Shown here: positions 4,312 to 20,008 of the stretch, piece after piece
Layout: the number at the start of each line of letters is the position of its first letter
Position numbering within the stretch: the stretch's first letter is position 1
NCBI GenBank assembly: GCA_021774015.1
Contig: JAJFJO010000015.1
Location: 1-26,247 of the forward strand
DNA length: 26,247 bases
From: Gammaproteobacteria bacterium
Lineage (GTDB): Bacteria; Pseudomonadota; Gammaproteobacteria; Coxiellales; Coxiellaceae
Direction of reading: 5' to 3'
Notes under the pieces: model-generated
Database searches by the model: none
Told to the model about the DNA's origin: nothing
What the model saw: only the letters and a program-made list of their open reading frames with translations
Made by a program: the position numbers and the translations under genes

Positions 4312-4710
4312 TTAGATTTCAGACTTTTTATCAGTTTGGTTTTCTTCATTAAAAATATGGTCATATAGCTCCTTTGTAACCGTCGCCTTAGTGCTGATCA
4401 TAAATTCATCAACTAAAATCTGTGGCAAAATATCCGTTCGCCCCGCCTTTTCGCGCTTGTGATAATGGATCGTGCCGCGCACATGGATCTGGGATCCTTT
4501 CATCAGTAATTGTTCAGCACGCTCAGCATTTCGCCCAAAGAACACGCACCAATGCAGCTCTTTAAATACTTGCTGTTCGCCACTGTTGTGATAGGCCCAA
4601 TGCTCGGTATAAACAGGTAGACGACATAGTTTACGACCATCTCCATAGGATTTTAGCTTTGGAAAAGTGCCACAGTAGCCAATCAATCGAACCTCATTGC
4701 AAAGTGCCAT
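4312..4710 (-). CDS. ssb: Single-stranded DNA-binding protein (divergent)
   Basis: NEVRLIGYCG..P.L...HWCVFFGRNAERAEQLLMKGSQIHVRGTI OB fold; follows topB. Confidence 0.88.
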   Translation of the reverse strand: MALCNEVRLIGYCGTFPKLKSYGDGRKLCRLPVYTEHWAYHNSGEQQVFKELHWCVFFGRNAERAEQLLMKGSQIHVRGTIHYHKREKAGRTDILPQILVDEFMISTKATVTKELYDHIFNEENQTDKKSEI

Positions 4711-4713
4711 CGC

Positions 4714-6888
4714 TTATTGCTCCGCCTTGTCTTTTTGGGGCGTAGCCAAATTAGGCTTGCCTTTTTGATCCCAATAGACCGCTTTGCAGTCAGGATATTG
4801 GGTGCAGCCCCACCAATAACCTTTCTTCTTTGCTTTTCGTTTAATTAGCTTGCCTGATTGACAGCTTGGGCAGTCAATGTCTGATGGTACTACGGTTTCT
4901 TTCATATGAGGCTTACCCCCCTTGTCTTGCATCAAACCATTGCAATCTGGGTAACGAGAGCATCCCCAGAAAAACCCATTTTTACCTTTTCGCCGAATCA
5001 ATGGCGATTTGCATTTAGGACAAGGATGTTGTGGCCCTAGATCGATACCTTTACCTCTGATTTGTCGAATTTTACTTAAGTCCTCTAGCATAAACTCAAG
5101 CACTTCTTCCTGATCAAGCAAAAAATCTTGCAGGTTACCATGCCCTTCGGCAATGTTATCGAGTTCTTGCTCCCAAGCGGCCGTTATGGCTGGATTTTTC
5201 ATTTGCTCAGGTAACAGATTGATTAATTCACGCCCACGATCCGTTGAAACTAATATTTTTTTATCTCGCTTGATATACCCACGGTTTAGCAATTTTTCAA
5301 TCGTATCAGCACGAGTTGCTTCCGTTCCTATGCCCGCGGTCTCTTTTAAGGTTTTTTTATGTGCCTCATCATCAACAAATTTTGCAATATTTTTCATAGC
5401 AGCAATGAGCGTACCTTCGGTGAATCTAGCCGGTGGTTTTGTTTGCTTAGATAAGCAATGTGTTTCTTTTGATGTAACGGATTCATTTTCGGTTAATTTA
5501 GGAATATTTAATTCTTTTTGTTTGTCATCGCTATCAAGTTCTTCCTGGTTTTTGCTAATAGCCTGTTTCCAACCAAGCTTTTTGGGCGTATTACTTGTTG
5601 CTGCGAAATTGTCATTTTCGCAATTCACCTCAACCTTTCTTTGATTGTATTCATAAAACCCGAGAAATTGGGCAATGTATTGGCGACGGATCAAATCATA
5701 AATAGCCAGCTCATCTTTACTCATCGCACCCGGATCTACCGATTCATTCAGTGTTGGTATAATGCCATGGTGAGCGGTGACTTTTTTATCGTTCCAGACG
5801 GGTGATTTTAGTGTAGCGTCGCAGTGTGATACCAACGCTTTAATCGAAGGATCAATACTGACGAGTGTATTCAATATACCTTCTGCTTCATCGAATTGAT
5901 TAACTGGCAAATAACCTGTATCCGTTCTTGGATAGCTTGTCGCCTTAAATTTTTCATAGAGAACCTGTGCAATTTCAAGCGTTTTTTTTGCCGATAGTCC
6001 AAGTCCACTCGATGCAACCTTTTGCAGGCTTGATAACGAAAAACAGACTGGCGGCGCTGTTTTTTTAGCTTTATCTTCAAATAGTGTCACGATACCGTTT
6101 TTGTCCTCAATTTTCTTTGCCACCGACTCCACTGTTTCTTGCTTTAAGCAATGCCCATCCATATCAGTTAATTCTTCTGGCGCTTGCCAACGTGCTATAA
6201 ATTCGCCCTGTTTGGCTTCAAACAAAACATCTAATTCAAAATAATCAGTTGACTTAAAATTTTCGATTGATCGATCACGCTGGACAATTAAGTTCAGTGT
6301 CGGAGTTTGAACACGACCCACTGATAATACACCTTGCCCAGGTGCGCCAAATAAACAACTGGTTGCCATGGTCATCGACATCCCAATAGTCCAATCAGCG
6401 CGTTGCCGCCCAAGTCCTGCAAGGTAGAGTGGATACGTAGACTCTCCAGGACGAATATTAGCTAACGCTTTTTTAATTGAAGCCTCATCCAAAGCTGAGA
6501 GCCATAAACGCTGTACTTGACCTTCATATTGATAGTAATCGAGAATTTCACGCCCAATAACGTCTCCCTCACGATCAGCATCCGTTGCGATAATGACATG
6601 GTTGGTTTGCTTCAGTAGTTTTTTAATGACAGTCAGTTGTGCTTTCGTTTTTTTATTCGGAATAAGATGCCATTCTTTGGGGATAATAGGTAAGACCTCC
6701 ATGCGCCATGGTTTTAGATTTTCACAATAATGCTCTGGTGGCGCTAATTCTAATAAATGGCCTAGACACCATGTTACTGTAATGCCACTGCCTTCAATGT
6801 AACCGTCTTGCCTTGACCCTGCCCCCAATACGTTTGCAATATCGCGTGCTTGTGATGGTTTCTCGCATAGGTATAGTGTATTTGTCAT
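4714..6888 (-). CDS. topB: DNA topoisomerase III (ICE type) with two C-terminal C4 zinc ribbons
   Basis: Toprim LCEKPSQA, ATDADREG, SVGRVQTPTL, catalytic SYPRTD, GIGTEATRA; CPKC/GCSRYPDC and CPSC/GCTQYPDC; ATG 6888 best spaced from GAGG. Confidence 0.96.
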   Translation of the reverse strand: MTNTLYLCEKPSQARDIANVLGAGSRQDGYIEGSGITVTWCLGHLLELAPPEHYCENLKPWRMEVLPIIPKEWHLIPNKKTKAQLTVIKKLLKQTNHVIIATDADREGDVIGREILDYYQYEGQVQRLWLSALDEASIKKALANIRPGESTYPLYLAGLGRQRADWTIGMSMTMATSCLFGAPGQGVLSVGRVQTPTLNLIVQRDRSIENFKSTDYFELDVLFEAKQGEFIARWQAPEELTDMDGHCLKQETVESVAKKIEDKNGIVTLFEDKAKKTAPPVCFSLSSLQKVASSGLGLSAKKTLEIAQVLYEKFKATSYPRTDTGYLPVNQFDEAEGILNTLVSIDPSIKALVSHCDATLKSPVWNDKKVTAHHGIIPTLNESVDPGAMSKDELAIYDLIRRQYIAQFLGFYEYNQRKVEVNCENDNFAATSNTPKKLGWKQAISKNQEELDSDDKQKELNIPKLTENESVTSKETHCLSKQTKPPARFTEGTLIAAMKNIAKFVDDEAHKKTLKETAGIGTEATRADTIEKLLNRGYIKRDKKILVSTDRGRELINLLPEQMKNPAITAAWEQELDNIAEGHGNLQDFLLDQEEVLEFMLEDLSKIRQIRGKGIDLGPQHPCPKCKSPLIRRKGKNGFFWGCSRYPDCNGLMQDKGGKPHMKETVVPSDIDCPSCQSGKLIKRKAKKKGYWWGCTQYPDCKAVYWDQKGKPNLATPQKDKAEQ

Positions 6889-6901
6889 GTGATGCATCCT
6901 C

Positions 6902-8766: not shown

Positions 8767-9319
8767 GCGATGCCTCCTGGATAGCTTTAATAATCACTCT
8801 TGGATCTGTTTCTCCTTTGAAAACAAATTTCCTTGATGGGTTGTTGGTTGGATAAACTAAAATAAGCGGCGTACCACTGTGATATTGTTTTAAGAGCGAT
8901 AGCCCAGCTTCCATTTCACTTAATACCCAAGGTTGATGCATCTTGGCTTGAAAGGTCTTTGTGTCTAAGTGCAAGTGATTCAAAATAATAAACACACCTT
9001 TTGCGCCTACGGCGCGTGACATTAAAAACTCATGGTATTTCAGAAAATCATTGGTGTTTTTAGCCATCACATAGCTACTGGTCGCTTCAACCAATGAATT
9101 TTTATTAATAATGGCAACAGGGATCAGTCGTATTTTTAAATGCTTGTCATGCACCATCAGCCAATTAATCAGTGGTTGCATTCGATGACAATGCCCACAC
9201 TGATAATCCATCACTTCTGTCAGTGTGACTGTCCCTTGTGGGTTACCCGCGACAATCGCCGCCAGCGTCACCTGGGAAAATAATGATAAGCATAATAGGA
9301 TCAAGCAACGCTTAAACAT
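8759..9319 (-). CDS. Exported DsbA-family thiol-disulfide oxidoreductase
   Basis: Signal peptide (…QVTLA), GNPQGTVTLTEVMDYQCGHC, cis-Pro loop GTP; GGAGG before ATG 9319. Confidence 0.9.
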   Translation of the reverse strand: MFKRCLILLCLSLFSQVTLAAIVAGNPQGTVTLTEVMDYQCGHCHRMQPLINWLMVHDKHLKIRLIPVAIINKNSLVEATSSYVMAKNTNDFLKYHEFLMSRAVGAKGVFIILNHLHLDTKTFQAKMHQPWVLSEMEAGLSLLKQYHSGTPLILVYPTNNPSRKFVFKGETDPRVIIKAIQEASHD

Positions 9320-11327
9320 CACAGTGCCCTCCGTTGCTATTAACAATCTCAATCAGCTCAACAAAATTTTTTGGTGCTAAAGACTCATTGGTAGGTAATG
9401 GCGCACGCACTTTATAAAGTTCACCACCATTGGTAAAAACAAAAGCATGGCCCTTGGGCAAGCTGATAATATCGTTGGCTTGCAGCATAGGGGTTGGTTT
9501 TAAGCTAATTCTGACGTCATTGCCGGTATTAAAATAAATCCCGTCTTCACCATGCGGTGTATCGGATGCAGAACTCCCTTCCATGCGGGTAACCACTTCA
9601 ACCTCGTTAAGCTGATCCACCAGCACCATCGCCGTGTCTTTGTTTTTTACACGCAGAAATATCTGAGATTGAAAATTGCCTTCTAGCATTTTTGCTTTAT
9701 CGTGATTACCACTAAATGCTGCGCCCAAATCATTAATCGTTTGGCAGGCTGCAATCACCTGAAATCCAGCGCCACCGGCTTTATTGAGTAGTGTTACAAA
9801 TTCATCCTGCACGATTTCTGAAAATTCATCACAATAAAGACAGACATCAACGCTTTCGTTGGCGTTATAGATTCGCCCAGCGCAAGAAACTAAATCTGAA
9901 ATAATAGCTTTCCCTAACGCAACAGAGACTTCCCTATTGACTAATGAGTTCAGACCAATATAAATAACCTGTCCTCGTTTAATGGCCTCCATTAAGTTAA
10001 CTTCAGGTTGCGGCGGATTTTCTTCAAACGAAAAAATATCACTTGCGTTGCTTTGATTAATCTTGTCGAGCACGGGACCGACACTGGCCGTGATTTTTTG
10101 ATAATACGTGGAATCCAGGGTTGCTGCGTCATAAAGCGGTACAATGACGTCATCCACCAAAGTTTGCATATCACCCTTTGAGACACTGGATTCAATAAAC
10201 GTCTTTAAGTATTTTTTTATCGCTGTGGAACGATTCATTTCAGTGAAGGCTTCGCCCTCTTCCTCTTTTTTTACCTGATATTCATCCATGATGTCCTGAA
10301 CCCCTGATAAGTATTCAAGATCTTGTTCAGGTAAGATCGCGTCAGCATATTTCAACAATAACACTTCAGGGCGTGTGATATAAAAACTGATCGTGCGATA
10401 GTTAATCGGCTCGCCTAGCTGTATTAAGCATTTAGCCGTGATATTAATGTATTTCCAAGCAAAATCTTTAAATTGACTACCCTCGCCTGATGCATCCATA
10501 GCGCTGGTAATACGTGTTGCCACATCAGCAATATCACTGTAGGACGATAAGGTATTTAACCTTGCAGAAATAGTGGGGAATCCCACATGCACAACCTTAA
10601 AATCATCTAAGCGCCCTGCGACAGCACTTGCAGCATACATATCCCGCAAAATGTCTAAATCCCCTTTGGGATCTAAAAATATCAGTGGTTTTTTACGGCG
10701 AATATCTTGATTAGCTAAAATGGATAATAATCGCGTTTTACCCACGCGCGTAGTGCCCAGCAGCAACACGTGTCCGTTGCGTTGTGATTCCAATAACCCA
10801 ATGGCCCTTTCACGATCGCCTAACCCATGTAACCAAGGCTTACCACCGATATCCGGCAGCTTCTTAAGCGGATTAAAAGGCACATCACTTTTCAGCATCG
10901 CGGCAAGCGTGTTTTGATGGGCTTTTTCATAGTCTCTAGCCCACTGATAAGCCTTACCCTTGCGCTGGTAAGTTTCATTTTCGACTTCATTAATGAAGCA
11001 TTTGCGTTGCGTATGCGTGCCCTCCCACGCAAAACCTTCGCCAATGTACTGCACCCCGGCTTTAAGTGGCACTTCCTCGGTTGTCATCCCAAACGTTTTT
11101 AATTTAAGTAGCCGCCGCTGAAAATTAATAATGCGAACACCCTGAAAAATTCGAGAGAAGGCAAATAACAACATAAATGCTTCAAAAGACCATAAATAAG
11201 CCCCTGACAGCAAAAAATAATGTGGATATAAGAGCACCAACAAACTACCGCAAAGTAACGCTACCCCTGAGTAACACTCAACAGCATTTCTAAAGGGATT
11301 TTCAACGGTATAGTGTGTACTCATCAT
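9312..11327 (-). CDS. traD: Type IV coupling protein TraD, PFGI-1 class
   Basis: YTVENPFRNAVE N-terminus, two TM segments, Walker A GTTRVGKT, FLDPKGD, Walker B YCDEFSE, NKAGGAGFQV. Confidence 0.96.
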   Translation of the reverse strand: MMSTHYTVENPFRNAVECYSGVALLCGSLLVLLYPHYFLLSGAYLWSFEAFMLLFAFSRIFQGVRIINFQRRLLKLKTFGMTTEEVPLKAGVQYIGEGFAWEGTHTQRKCFINEVENETYQRKGKAYQWARDYEKAHQNTLAAMLKSDVPFNPLKKLPDIGGKPWLHGLGDRERAIGLLESQRNGHVLLLGTTRVGKTRLLSILANQDIRRKKPLIFLDPKGDLDILRDMYAASAVAGRLDDFKVVHVGFPTISARLNTLSSYSDIADVATRITSAMDASGEGSQFKDFAWKYINITAKCLIQLGEPINYRTISFYITRPEVLLLKYADAILPEQDLEYLSGVQDIMDEYQVKKEEEGEAFTEMNRSTAIKKYLKTFIESSVSKGDMQTLVDDVIVPLYDAATLDSTYYQKITASVGPVLDKINQSNASDIFSFEENPPQPEVNLMEAIKRGQVIYIGLNSLVNREVSVALGKAIISDLVSCAGRIYNANESVDVCLYCDEFSEIVQDEFVTLLNKAGGAGFQVIAACQTINDLGAAFSGNHDKAKMLEGNFQSQIFLRVKNKDTAMVLVDQLNEVEVVTRMEGSSASDTPHGEDGIYFNTGNDVRISLKPTPMLQANDIISLPKGHAFVFTNGGELYKVRAPLPTNESLAPKNFVELIEIVNSNGGHCDV

Positions 11328-16098: not shown

Positions 16099-16507
16099 GA
16101 TCGCGCTCCAGAAAGGCTTGGTATTCTCTAATCCCTGAATCAACGTTTTGTTGTCCATAAATGACGTATCGATGATTAATAACAATGGCAGGCAAGCGGG
16201 TTACACCGAGTTTGGCCGCCTCATATTGGCAAATAACATTGTTAGACAAGGCTTTAAATTGTTTTGAATAACGTTGAGTAATGTTAGTTGCGCTCATTGA
16301 CCTTGTTGCCATTTGTTTTTTTAAATCCTGATTAATCGCTGTTTTAATCTGATCGGCTTTATCCAATAAGCACACTGATGTAGTTTTCGTGTTCTGCACA
16401 GACGGCTGGGTAGTCAAACCAAAATACTGAACCGTCATCGCAAAAGACGATAAAGGTAAAACGATGCAGACTACACAAGCCGCTTTAATCATCAAATGTT
16501 TCATCAT
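16088..16507 (-). CDS. ICE protein, PFL_4709 family (DUF1525); exact start uncertain
   Basis: AAKLGVTRLPAIVINHRYVIYGQQNV motif; signal peptide; synteny. Confidence 0.88.
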   Translation of the reverse strand: MMKHLMIKAACVVCIVLPLSSFAMTVQYFGLTTQPSVQNTKTTSVCLLDKADQIKTAINQDLKKQMATRSMSATNITQRYSKQFKALSNNVICQYEAAKLGVTRLPAIVINHRYVIYGQQNVDSGIREYQAFLERDHVE

Positions 16508-19391
16508 CGACAATCTCTCTTCGGTAGGATTTTAGTTTTTCAGCAATTTTCTCAACCGCTTCTAAATCGGTATAACCAAACTGTTCACATAAGGCCCGGC
16601 GCTCTGCTTTCTCATTTTGCTCAGTCATAGCAAGCGCCAATGCAATTCTTGGTGGAATATTTCGAAATAATCCTTGATAGTTTTCACCTAATAACACGCC
16701 TTCGGCATAGACCTTGGGATACTTCTTCACACTGCTCAATAAATCGCGTTGTTCTTTCGTGAGCGCCCTAAATTTCGGAATAAGATCGATTTCTTTTTCA
16801 GAGAGCGCCAGACATAACCAGTTCTCCATCATGGATAAAAGCTTGCTGGTCTCTAACCCCTCTAAATCCGCAATGTTCTGTGTGGCTGGCATAAGCCAAA
16901 GTCCTAATTTTCGAGAAACTTTTGCCATCAAGGTCGCAAAAGCGGCAATCATTTGGTTTTTAAATAACAGATGCGCCTCATCCATGATAAAAATGGTTGG
17001 ACGGTTGCTGAATTGATTGGCCTCAGCAATGCCTAATACCCGAGAGAGCACGGAAATAGCCACGACATTCAATCCTGACTCTTGGCCCTTATCTTTCAAA
17101 AAGCCAAGATCAATGTGCATGTAATCAAAATCGGTCGCAGGCTTGGCAGGAGAATTAAAAAAGTTAGCTAAATCTCCCGTAATGAATTGGGTCATACTCG
17201 CAGCAAAGTCTTTAAAGCGTGCAGCGTTATCAGCATCTTCTTCTGCCGCCAACAAAAACCCTTCTATAAAGTCCTCTGTTAAGACTTGTTCTTTACCCGC
17301 TTGATAGCAACGCTTAACCGTATCGATAATAGTTTTCGTGACACGCCCCATATCAGCACGCGTGATATTCGCTTCTTCTTGCTCATCACCGCCTGTAATC
17401 ATGCAACGAATGACCAATGCCATTTCGTTCAGCACATCACGATCTTCATCAGCTTTCTTTTCTTTTTCAGTCGCTGCCTGATGTATTGTTTCAATTTCAT
17501 CGATTTGTTGACCCGCGTGTTCTGCCACGATGGTTTTATCAACGCCTGTCTCATCAACCCCAAACTTTAAGCCTGCTGATTTTTGATCTTTAAGATCGGT
17601 GACAATGCGCTCTTTTTCCAATTCAACAGCATCTAATATTTTATAGGCGTCCATAAATGGATTGGTAGGAATGGCCATGTTACGATCAAACTTTAAATAC
17701 TCGACTTTCTTGCCATGTTGTTTTAAATAACGAGTCAACACATCAAAAGACCCACCCGCTTCTAAAATTACGACACGTGCATCAATGATGGCTAATAAAC
17801 ACATAACGATATAGCTAATCGATACTGACTTGCCTGCACCACTGGTACCAAATAACACGACATGGCTGTTGTTTGACTTAAATTGTTCATGGTAAGGATC
17901 AAAAATAACCCCTTCCCCACCACGGTTGTAAAACAAAAACAAAGGATGCAGTTGATCGCCACGAAAACGCCCATAAAAAGGCAAAAGAGCCGCTAAATCT
18001 GTCGCAAACAAATATTGCGACACAAACATTTTATGTTTTTCAAACGTATAATCATAATTGCCCGGTAAAAATCGAATATAGGTGTCGATAGGATAAAGGT
18101 TAAACTTAGTCTCAATGACTCTGAGGCTCGCATTGCGCAGCAACCCTCTGAGCTTACGTTCTTTTTTCGCAAGGTCCTCTTCATTCTCACCACGAAAGAA
18201 GACGGCTTGGGAGGTGCGAATTAATAAATTACCATTGGGAATTTCATCACGCGCAAGTGCGACATCTCGTTTAACACGACCGGGTTCACCGCCCTTACCA
18301 ATCGCACTTTTTTCAATATTGTCTAAATGTTTTTCCAAGGTTTGTTTTGATTCAAATACCATTTGAATCGTATACACACTCCCCGGTGGGAAATGGTCAA
18401 TCAGTGCTGCCCGTTTACCATTAATACTACGCTCCCTTGAAATAACACCAATTTTGGGTGCGTTCTCAAGTTCAGCAAAAACTAATACCCGGTGTTCTAA
18501 TCCATCAAACAACCAGCCCTTTTCATCATCAGTCGCAACCGGCTGCGATTTAAACGCATTTTGCATAATCGACCAGCCAAAGGGTTTTTTTTCAGGATAA
18601 GGAAACAACTCTAATAGCTTATCAACATCACCGTCTGTGATTTCAGGTCTGGGATTAAACCAACGTACATGCCAATCATAAACGTGCTTACCCGTTAATG
18701 TTCGCACCTTCATCCCTTTATCTTTCAACGTATCAATCATATTTTCTGTGACTTCATCTAACTCATTAAAGGTTTCACGTCTATAATCAAAACCTTTAAT
18801 ACGACGCTTATGTCGCCTATAAAGCGCCATGCGTAATCGCCTACTTCGCCCTCGAAAAGGCAAGCCCGACATTGGATCAACAAAGATACCGTTTTCTTTA
18901 CACATCAAATCGAAATGATCGTTCATTACGTCATTTATAAAGTGCTGACTAAAAGCATCATCTTTTAATTCTGGTTTTACATAATCATGAAGTCGTTTTT
19001 TAAGCCCTTTTAGCGTCATATCATCTTGGCAATAAATGGCAACGGTCCAAGGATTGACATCTTCTAGCGGTACAATGTGAGAAAGCAGCGCAGTGAGCTT
19101 TTGATACAGCTCAATAATGGCCTCTCCAGATAAGGTTTCACAAGAAATATCTTGGATTTCTAAAAAACGGATCAGTGAGACACCGTCTTCTAAAAGCCCT
19201 ACATTTTTTTCATCATCCCAATCAACGATAGACATTTCATCCGATAAGGATCGATGTGCCTGATAACCTTTTTCTTTATCTGAATTCTTAATAGCACTTC
19301 TTGTGCTATTATATGAAGGCGCGATTTCTTCAACCGAACCAGTGGCGTTACCTGCATCTCCTTTTAATTTCTTTTTAAGACTTTTCAACAT
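16485..19391 (-). CDS. virB4: Conjugative transfer ATPase VirB4/TraC, PFL_4706 family
   Basis: Walker A GTSGAGKS, Walker B IMDEAH, KVSRKLGLWLMPATQN, RNIPPRIALALAMTEQNEKAER. Confidence 0.96.
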   Translation of the reverse strand: MLKSLKKKLKGDAGNATGSVEEIAPSYNSTRSAIKNSDKEKGYQAHRSLSDEMSIVDWDDEKNVGLLEDGVSLIRFLEIQDISCETLSGEAIIELYQKLTALLSHIVPLEDVNPWTVAIYCQDDMTLKGLKKRLHDYVKPELKDDAFSQHFINDVMNDHFDLMCKENGIFVDPMSGLPFRGRSRRLRMALYRRHKRRIKGFDYRRETFNELDEVTENMIDTLKDKGMKVRTLTGKHVYDWHVRWFNPRPEITDGDVDKLLELFPYPEKKPFGWSIMQNAFKSQPVATDDEKGWLFDGLEHRVLVFAELENAPKIGVISRERSINGKRAALIDHFPPGSVYTIQMVFESKQTLEKHLDNIEKSAIGKGGEPGRVKRDVALARDEIPNGNLLIRTSQAVFFRGENEEDLAKKERKLRGLLRNASLRVIETKFNLYPIDTYIRFLPGNYDYTFEKHKMFVSQYLFATDLAALLPFYGRFRGDQLHPLFLFYNRGGEGVIFDPYHEQFKSNNSHVVLFGTSGAGKSVSISYIVMCLLAIIDARVVILEAGGSFDVLTRYLKQHGKKVEYLKFDRNMAIPTNPFMDAYKILDAVELEKERIVTDLKDQKSAGLKFGVDETGVDKTIVAEHAGQQIDEIETIHQAATEKEKKADEDRDVLNEMALVIRCMITGGDEQEEANITRADMGRVTKTIIDTVKRCYQAGKEQVLTEDFIEGFLLAAEEDADNAARFKDFAASMTQFITGDLANFFNSPAKPATDFDYMHIDLGFLKDKGQESGLNVVAISVLSRVLGIAEANQFSNRPTIFIMDEAHLLFKNQMIAAFATLMAKVSRKLGLWLMPATQNIADLEGLETSKLLSMMENWLCLALSEKEIDLIPKFRALTKEQRDLLSSVKKYPKVYAEGVLLGENYQGLFRNIPPRIALALAMTEQNEKAERRALCEQFGYTDLEAVEKIAEKLKSYRREIVDDETFDD

Positions 19392-19566
19392 AATGATCCC
19401 TGATCGCTGCCATTAAATTGGTTTTACCAACGCGTGTTGTTCCCATTAGAAACTTCGCATCCGGTGTTATCATTCGGCCGTGATACGCAACATGTGTGAC
19501 ATCACTATCTGCATTACTAGTTTCTGTTTGCGTTGTTAACAACCTGCTTTTTCCGTTCTTTGTCAT
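19375..19566 (-). CDS. 63-aa peptide containing a TraD-type Walker A motif (GTTRVGKT)
   Basis: ATG immediately after the TIGR03751 stop with GAGG upstream; fills the gap and overlaps the virB4 start. Confidence 0.65.
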   Translation of the reverse strand: MTKNGKSRLLTTQTETSNADSDVTHVAYHGRMITPDAKFLMGTTRVGKTNLMAAIRDHYVEKS

Positions 19567-19567
19567 C

Positions 19568-20008
19568 TCAATATTCCTCACCTGGCATGGCATAATGATT
19601 TTTTTCATACAAGAAAAATGTCGTGGTATACCCCGGTACTGGCACGTTAGTACCACTGTAATGTGACATATGCGGGAAGATATAGGCCGCAATGTTTGGG
19701 TTGGGTAATACCTTAAATTCACTGTTCATTTGATTCTGTGCCACATCGGTATATTGATCATTGATCGGCATAATTGGCTTTGACACGCGACGGTAACTGG
19801 GTGGATCAACTCGATTGCTTGATGACGTCTCATTGCCAACCGCTTGCGTATTGCTGGGCACGGCTAATCCTGTCTGCACACGATAAATTTGTGCCATCGT
19901 CATATCACCGTGTGGCAACATATTTTTACCTGGTGTCGTACAACCACTTAACAGCACAATGCTAGTCAAGCTGATGAGTAGCGAACTGGTTTTGATTATT
20001 TTGTTCAT
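19568..20008 (-). CDS. Conjugative transfer lipoprotein, TIGR03751 family
   Basis: Lipobox LLSGC; F..LPNP.I..YIFPH...VPVPGYTT.F.LYEK.HYAMPGE. Confidence 0.93.
   Translation of the reverse strand: MNKIIKTSSLLISLTSIVLLSGCTTPGKNMLPHGDMTMAQIYRVQTGLAVPSNTQAVGNETSSSNRVDPPSYRRVSKPIMPINDQYTDVAQNQMNSEFKVLPNPNIAAYIFPHMSHYSGTNVPVPGYTTTFFLYEKNHYAMPGEEY

Follow-up and report, generated by a model that had tools for sequence, protein, structure and literature searches.

A 63-codon open reading frame with a TraD-type Walker A motif between a lipoprotein gene and virB4 in an MPF_G conjugative element: a candidate bridging frame

The lipoprotein–virB4 junction and its surroundings

The stretch of DNA considered here (the window, 26,247 nt) is the whole of contig JAJFJO010000015.1 from a gammaproteobacterial metagenome-assembled genome (MAG; GCA_021774015.1, 2.48 Mb, 87% complete). 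All its genes are on the minus strand and represent the transfer region of an integrative conjugative element (ICE) of the MPF_G (ICEclc/PAPI-1/ICEHin1056) type. Our subject is an open reading frame (ORF) of 63 codons, ORF63, which occupies the spacer between the TIGR03751 lipoprotein gene and virB4 and, in geometry, looks like a bridge from one to the other. Its peptide begins with M-T-K-N-G-K-S, ends with E-K-S and contains, within the segment F-L-M-G-T-T-R-V-G-K-T-N-L-M, the same Walker A octamer as the TraD coupling protein of the element.

The lipoprotein gene ends with a TGA at 19570-19568 and a single nucleotide separates it from the ATG of ORF63 (TGA-G-ATG). The Shine–Dalgarno (SD) element of ORF63, GAGG, lies 9 nt upstream of this ATG, within the lipoprotein gene. 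Its predicted duplex with the anti-SD sequence (−7.3 kcal/mol) is stronger than the median for the other genes of the window (−5.6 kcal/mol), and the SD of virB4 itself is weaker (−4.9 kcal/mol). The GAGG element also precedes the virB4 start in three related loci, L015, L017 and L018. At the other end, the TAA of ORF63 lies 17 nt inside virB4, which starts with the ATG at 19391 and is read in the +1 frame relative to ORF63. Thus, ORF63 shows both marks of a bridging ORF: a start adjoining the upstream stop, with the SD inside the upstream gene, and a stop overlapping the downstream start. In all these respects, namely the coordinates, the two octamer copies, the GAGG, the start directly after the stop and the overlap with virB4, the original prediction for this locus was accurate, and its view that the arrangement fits translational coupling agrees with what we see on the minus strand (Table 1). 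As for other signals, the spacer has no Rfam match, promoter or terminator and its fold z-score is −0.2; a structured-RNA reading of the spacer was rejected on the fold score and the missing Rfam match.

Table 1. Features of the junction and of the related genes, in window coordinates
Feature	Position	Strand	Basis
TIGR03751 conjugal transfer lipoprotein gene (ICEclc orf62755 equivalent)	19568..20008	-	NCBIfam 112 bits, E 2.4e-32
GAGG Shine–Dalgarno element of ORF63, within the conserved last lipoprotein codons (PGEEY)	19576..19579	-	sequence
ORF63 (P0005), 63 codons, filling the lipoprotein–virB4 spacer	19375..19566	-	translation, codon usage, homologs
TraD-like patch FLMGTTRVGKTNLMA, ORF63 residues 39-53	19408..19452	-	29-TraD profile and BLASTP; sole part aligning to the TraD family
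Walker A octamer GTTRVGKT of ORF63	19420..19443	-	sequence
Overlap of ORF63 end and virB4 start, 17 nt	19375..19391	-	sequence
Hypervariable patch: spacer and first ~35 virB4 codons	19290..19567	-	windowed identity and alignment against L011
virB4/traC, PFL_4706-type conjugative transfer ATPase, full length	16485..19391	-	TIGR03744 741 bits
traD coupling protein gene	9312..11327	-	TIGR03754 667 bits; Walker A GTTRVGKT at 10734-10757

The type IV secretion system (T4SS) genes follow one another, in the direction of transcription, in the order TIGR03759, TIGR03765, TIGR03747, RAQPRD, TIGR03750, TIGR03746, TIGR03749, TIGR03752, TIGR03751 (the lipoprotein), TIGR03744 (the VirB4/TraC ATPase), TIGR03757, TIGR03756 and TIGR03755. 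Downstream of them are the genes for TraD (TIGR03754), topoisomerase III (4714-6897) and SSB (two ssb genes, 1309-1671 and 4312-4710), together with a fragment of a Tn3-family transposase (474-989). The Walker A motif of VirB4 itself reads GTSGAGKS.

Occurrence of ORF63 and reliability of the sequence

An overlap of two genes one frame apart, on a contig from a low-coverage MAG (word depth ~3.5), invites a trivial explanation: a chimeric assembly, or an N-terminally extended VirB4 that has been split by a frameshift error. However, Logan contigs from two runs of a biofilm metagenome (probably that of the source study) are identical over the region and free of indels, and a 151-nt marine metagenome unitig (X5), from data of another study, aligns without gaps to 19382-19532, with eight mismatches. 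On these two grounds an artefact at ORF63 is unlikely. The architecture also recurs in a second homolog, P0006, in which the ORF and the start of virB4 are likewise separate. Moreover, the TIGR03744 profile spans only residues 36-957 of VirB4, the relatives' VirB4 proteins start with the same ML..KLKG, and no slippery site for a +1 shift was seen on reading the sequence. We therefore regard an error of this kind as scarcely credible. A programmed frameshift fusing ORF63 to VirB4 was rejected by inspection as well, virB4 lying in the +1 frame with no slippery site in view.

Only three copies of ORF63 are known: ORF63 itself, P0006 and the X5 unitig. P0006 was the sole other homolog in an exhaustive HMMER scan of 1.84 billion representatives. 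It is 59 residues long, 64-68% identical to ORF63, and its octamer reads GATRVGKT. Compared with ORF63 it has an in-frame deletion of eight codons (24 nt) and a different C-terminal tail. Nevertheless, it sits in the same place on its 556-bp NCBI contig (GCA_002998485.1), 1 nt after the end of a gene, and stops 15 nt before the next gene, virB4. In X5, too, the ORF is in the same place and the frame is open. Word-index searches over 5.8 billion clusters returned only ORF63 itself when it was the query, and only ORF63 and P0006 when a profile of the two sequences was used.

Closer to the host, the result was the same. Across 162 genomes of the host family and its relatives, six-frame searches (in 60 relatives, in 63 genomes of the family and in 99 relatives of the genome carrying locus L011) recovered no copy. 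Plasmid searches with tblastn and blastn gave no match, a degenerate DNA pattern had no match in viral contigs, and a search with the VirB4 N-terminus returned only locus L050. A weak match to one contig, C38, was rejected as it came from a low-complexity protein without a P-loop. The gene table of ICEclc has no counterpart of ORF63 (PMC10018362). ORF63 is absent from L011, L050 and L016, in which the C-terminal part of the lipoprotein is at least 89% identical, and, more broadly, from L011, L050, L015-L018 and 23 further MPF_G loci. A comparison of junctions across MPF_G loci, proposed in the original prediction, revealed no Walker A motif in the lipoprotein–virB4 spacers of the 28 other loci. 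ORF63 is not a general component of MPF_G T4SSs.

The junction in related elements

In roughly 20 of the 29 MPF_G loci sampled (L015, L017, L018 and about 17 of the 23 further loci from the class), virB4 starts between about −20 and +10 nt from the lipoprotein stop. In ICEclc the two genes, orf62755 and iceB4, abut, as deduced by arithmetic from the published coordinates (PMC10018362). A subclade differs: there the virB4 start (ML..) lies 44-176 nt downstream of the lipoprotein stop, the largest distance being that of the window. In L011, with its 90% identical VirB4, the spacer measures 44 nt and its 20-codon ORF extends 23 nt into virB4. The spacer of L050 (45 nt) contains no ORF, and that of L016 (107 nt) contains a 13-codon ORF. 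The short ORFs of L011 (2960-3023) and L016 (2405-2447) both begin right after the lipoprotein stop and are unrelated to ORF63, although the architecture in L011 is the same.

Alignment with L011 delimits the variable region. The stretch 19567-19290 could not be aligned, whereas in the flanks the identity per 30-nt block is mostly 80-90%, the exception being a variable part of the lipoprotein gene. Since virB4 starts no more than about 20 nt from the lipoprotein stop in most MPF_G elements sampled, the extra DNA is, by this comparison, best described as a lineage-specific replacement of a hypervariable spacer. The start of ORF63, M-T-K-N-G-K, resembles the virB4 start of L015 and the start of the short ORF of L016 (MxMPKNK), and ORF63 would therefore begin at the ancestral coupled start.

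Several observations on neighboring parts of these loci are worth recording. The N-terminal tail of VirB4 in the window (19290-19391, ahead of the TIGR03744 profile start) is itself hypervariable and mosaic, being nearer to the tails of L015 and L016 than to that of L011 despite the 90% identity of the remaining L011 VirB4. The GC-rich MPF_G locus L058 carries a 77-codon ORF without a Walker A motif, which begins 12 nt past the lipoprotein stop and extends across a virB4 start 91 nt downstream; perhaps this is a further long bridging ORF, or perhaps the virB4 start has been misplaced. One 8.3-Mb MAG (CBDALO01) carries three virB4 copies that are 57-58% identical (L012, L013 and L014), with transposase genes directly upstream of, or interrupting, the virB4 5′ end, so that the lipoprotein–virB4 junction is destroyed. 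Finally, virB4 of L050 (4001-6901) is in pieces of 98, 609 and 153 residues on a contig labelled 3x, which probably reflects frameshift errors at low coverage rather than a pseudogene.

Resemblance to TraD

The shared octamer is not a chance match. Open frames of 60 or more residues in the 2.48-Mb genome contain 196 Walker A matches, of which only those of TraD and ORF63 read GTTRVGKT. Exactly this octamer occurs in 16 of 28 TraD-family proteins sampled across the class, and it is thus the Walker A signature of ICE TraD proteins. The resemblance is nevertheless short. BLASTP of ORF63 against the resident TraD gives an E-value of 5e-5, and a profile built from 29 sequences (the 28 sampled and the resident TraD) matches residues 39-53 only, with 11.8 bits and an E-value of 8e-6 for this single comparison. 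At the DNA level there is no signal. The octamer is encoded by GGA ACA ACA CGC GTT GGT AAA ACC in ORF63 and by GGC ACT ACG CGC GTG GGT AAA ACG in traD, so that five of the eight codons differ synonymously, and the 19 of 24 shared bases hardly depart from the 18.2 expected for two independent encodings with the codon usage of the element. No DNA-level match to the spacer was found in some 30 sampled traD genes or elsewhere in the genome.

These data bear on two claims of the original prediction. It had noted that the octamer is conserved in protein and not in DNA, and had taken this to suggest that no recent duplication of traD is involved; both points hold, with synonymous sites saturated and no DNA donor detected. 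Its suggestion that ORF63 is a relic of traD relocation is not supported, as only 15 residues are TraD-like and virB4 is found at or near the lipoprotein stop in most MPF_G elements. A second echo of TraD occurs near the start of ORF63, where residues 2-11 (19537-19563), T-K-N-G-K-S-R-L-L-T, share six of ten positions with T-R-V-G-K-T-R-L-L-S of TraD. Chance is the probable explanation, given that the M.KN.K start is ancestral and that P0006 lacks the RLLTTQTE part.

Need the patch have come from TraD at all? It could derive from another family, such as an AAA+ gene of a mobile element (IstB-, DnaA- or DnaC-like), or be a coincidence. The 15-residue extent of the TraD homology leaves room for this. 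The sequence after the loop, GKT-N-L-M-A-A-I, fits the AAA+ pattern, GKTHL..AI, as well as it fits GKTRLAELL of TraD, and the top ESM Atlas matches of ORF63 are IstB_IS21 fragments (scores 0.92-0.93). On the other hand, TTRV is characteristic of TraD (the same 16 of 28 proteins) and is present in no other P-loop protein of the genome, and the chance that an intergenic ORF would match a Walker A motif of its own window is, by a rough estimate, about 5e-8 per window. There is also no second genomic copy, and no insertion sequence remnants or repeats were noticed by eye beside the patch, although no dedicated repeat search was made; insertion of a repeat or mobile element was rejected for the same reasons, within the same limit. 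An origin outside TraD thus seems unlikely to us. In any case, the source of the patch is a question separate from what ORF63 does.

Coding character and selection

The codon-usage log-odds of ORF63 falls at the 21st percentile of true in-frame windows of 63 codons, a value reached by only 2 of 77 spurious open stretches (2.6%). Together with the strong SD, this suggests that ORF63 is probably translated. Furthermore, the in-frame indel and the stop near the virB4 start in both full copies suggest selection for an open frame in the spacer.

The comparison with X5 is less clear-cut. Of six positioned differences, all that are available, four are at codon positions 1-2 (Y28H, H29N, G30D and K38R) and two at position 3 (one synonymous, at P35, the other within the G30D codon), giving four amino-acid changes and one synonymous change, with the P-loop unchanged. 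In the lipoprotein gene from the same sample, five of nine differences are at third positions. This contrast is what would be expected if ORF63 were an untranslated or neutrally drifting relic, that is, a piece of coding DNA in a hypervariable spacer which is open because it is young, with virB4 using its own SD. The idea accounts for several other facts: L011, L050 and L016 lack ORF63 and their T4SS genes look intact where sampled, the C-terminal tails of ORF63 and P0006 differ, and most of the peptide has no predicted fold. It does not sit well with the open frame itself. By a rough estimate from base composition, 63 open codons from a coupled ATG to the virB4 start have about a 1-2% chance of arising in AT-rich DNA; the frame of P0006 is open at 64-68% identity in spite of its 24-nt indel and altered tail; and in ORF63 a strong SD at optimal spacing is combined with coding-like codon usage. 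We consider drift somewhat improbable, yet the most serious of the alternatives.

Fold and possible activity of the peptide

ORF63 matches no Pfam or NCBIfam family and no PDB sequence, even at E-values up to 10. Its AlphaFold2 model has a mean pLDDT of 59 and a disordered N-terminal region of 26 residues, the sole confident element being a helix at residues 45-61 (pLDDT ~77). In the ESM Atlas, its neighbors are short IstB-like P-loop fragments, which means that it looks like a truncated P-loop piece. A role as a small VirB3-like subunit finds no counterpart in the sequence, as ORF63 is hydrophilic throughout and has no membrane-spanning helices. A P-loop nucleoside triphosphatase (NTPase) domain is not possible in a 63-residue chain without Walker B, and since the rest of the fold is missing too, the product cannot be an NTPase.

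A peptide that is no enzyme could still act. One may imagine a mini-protein of strand, P-loop and helix that binds phosphate ligands or DNA, or that modulates the TraD or VirB4 ATPases, the latter as the original prediction proposed. All three copies retain a Walker A consensus with its flanks (FLMG.TRVGKTNL.AA), the predicted helix comes directly after the loop as in P-loop folds, and the ESM Atlas neighbors are of the same kind. In addition, designed β-(P-loop)-α peptides of about 40-55 residues, from the Tawfik laboratory, reportedly bind ATP and single-stranded DNA. However, Walker B and a complete domain are both lacking, and the P-loop is conserved no more strongly than the N-terminus: between ORF63 and P0006, 2 of 15 residues changed in the TraD-like patch and 11 of 32 elsewhere (Fisher p 0.17). 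The T4SS of close relatives can dispense with the ORF, no other sampled MPF_G locus has it, the 162 genomes contain no copy, and a single homolog emerged from the large HMMER and word-index collections. A complex prediction for ORF63 with VirB4 residues 1-480 scored 0.00, which amounts to no verdict and carries no weight either way. Taken together, a functional P-loop mini-protein is quite unlikely. Positive support for it, or for a decoy, did not materialize, and the absence of ORF63 from L011, L050 and L016 is an outcome that the original prediction itself had counted against the idea.

The more specific proposal, that ORF63 is a natural free-standing β-(P-loop)-α micro-protein derived from a TraD fragment, made together with VirB4 and binding nucleotide or DNA or tuning the T4SS ATPases, seems to us more doubtful still. 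An active ORF63 peptide is not favored by the present evidence. Were it nevertheless active, the minimal P-loop peptides that serve as models for the origin of NTPases would have a rare natural counterpart, and the T4SS a new accessory factor; no natural free-standing example is known to us.

A proposed bridging role for ORF63

From the observed geometry, the distribution and the limited extent of homology, we infer translation, a relay function and an origin of the patch by capture. The reading that we favor, while giving it about the same chance of failing as of holding, is that ORF63 is a lineage-restricted bridging ORF: it would occupy a hypervariable spacer, carry translation over from the lipoprotein gene to virB4 and hold a captured P-loop fragment. 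In most such elements the virB4 start is no more than about 20 nt from the lipoprotein stop, and its SD is embedded in the last lipoprotein codons. In a subclade, the virB4 start would have moved 44-176 nt downstream, and the spacer is hypervariable. In the present lineage this spacer is one open frame that runs from the old coupled start to 17 nt inside virB4. A relay of ribosomes is possible because the frame spans the whole distance between the two starts: ribosomes leaving the lipoprotein gene would start anew on ORF63, translate the spacer and, after termination, initiate again at the ATG of virB4, which has a mediocre SD itself. The Walker A segment would be a patch of 15 residues of TraD-family type captured from a P-loop gene.

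Two findings speak for the bridging ORF in particular. The frame is open up to the virB4 start in the two other copies, in spite of the eight-codon indel and the changed tail, and different short ORFs occupy the same site in L011 (20 codons) and L016 (13 codons). Other findings weigh against it. The relay is not obligatory, because the SD of virB4 is itself usable and in L050 a 45-nt spacer suffices without an upstream ORF. The Walker A motif is intact in all three copies (GTTRVGKT twice, GATRVGKT once); if only the open frame mattered, its retention would have to be a coincidence explained by young age. Three known copies are few, and neither the sampled traD genes nor the rest of the genome provided a donor for the patch.

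If the relay is real, the locus would offer a tidy example of how coupling of virB4 can be kept after its start codon has drifted away, and of how a gene fragment can be recruited as spacer filling. It would also carry a lesson for annotation, namely that such ORFs should not be called ATP-binding proteins.

Comparison with known systems

ORF63 invites comparison with four systems. With the TraD type IV coupling proteins (TIGR03754, TIGR03743; IceD4 of ICEclc) it shares the signature GTTRVGKT, preceded by a hydrophobic strand and followed by a helix. Yet just 15 of about 650 residues align. ORF63 has neither a profile match above the cut-off nor a full NTPase domain with Walker B, lacks the all-α domain, and contains no hydrophobic stretch that could serve as the N-terminal transmembrane anchor or any other transmembrane segment. 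Judged by these features, ORF63 is not to be counted as a member of the TraD family. The designed β-(P-loop)-α peptides are similar in size and in the strand–loop–helix layout around Walker A, but they are engineered, whereas ORF63 is natural.

The orf62755–iceB4 junction of ICEclc has the same gene order and the same flanking families as the window; there, however, the genes abut by their coordinates, in contrast to the 176 nt and the additional ORF found here (PMC10018362). The fourth parallel comes from bacterial operons in which termination–reinitiation couples the translation of adjacent or overlapping genes, and from their short bridging ORFs. Like these, ORF63 starts 1 nt past a stop codon with its SD in the upstream gene, overlaps the downstream start by 17 nt, and has short unrelated ORFs as its counterparts at the same site in sister elements. 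Unlike them, it is long for a pure relay, at 63 codons, and contains a recognizable protein motif. We see ORF63 as an unusual form of coupled short ORFs and of small ORFs derived from gene fragments, rare and dispensable in sister elements.

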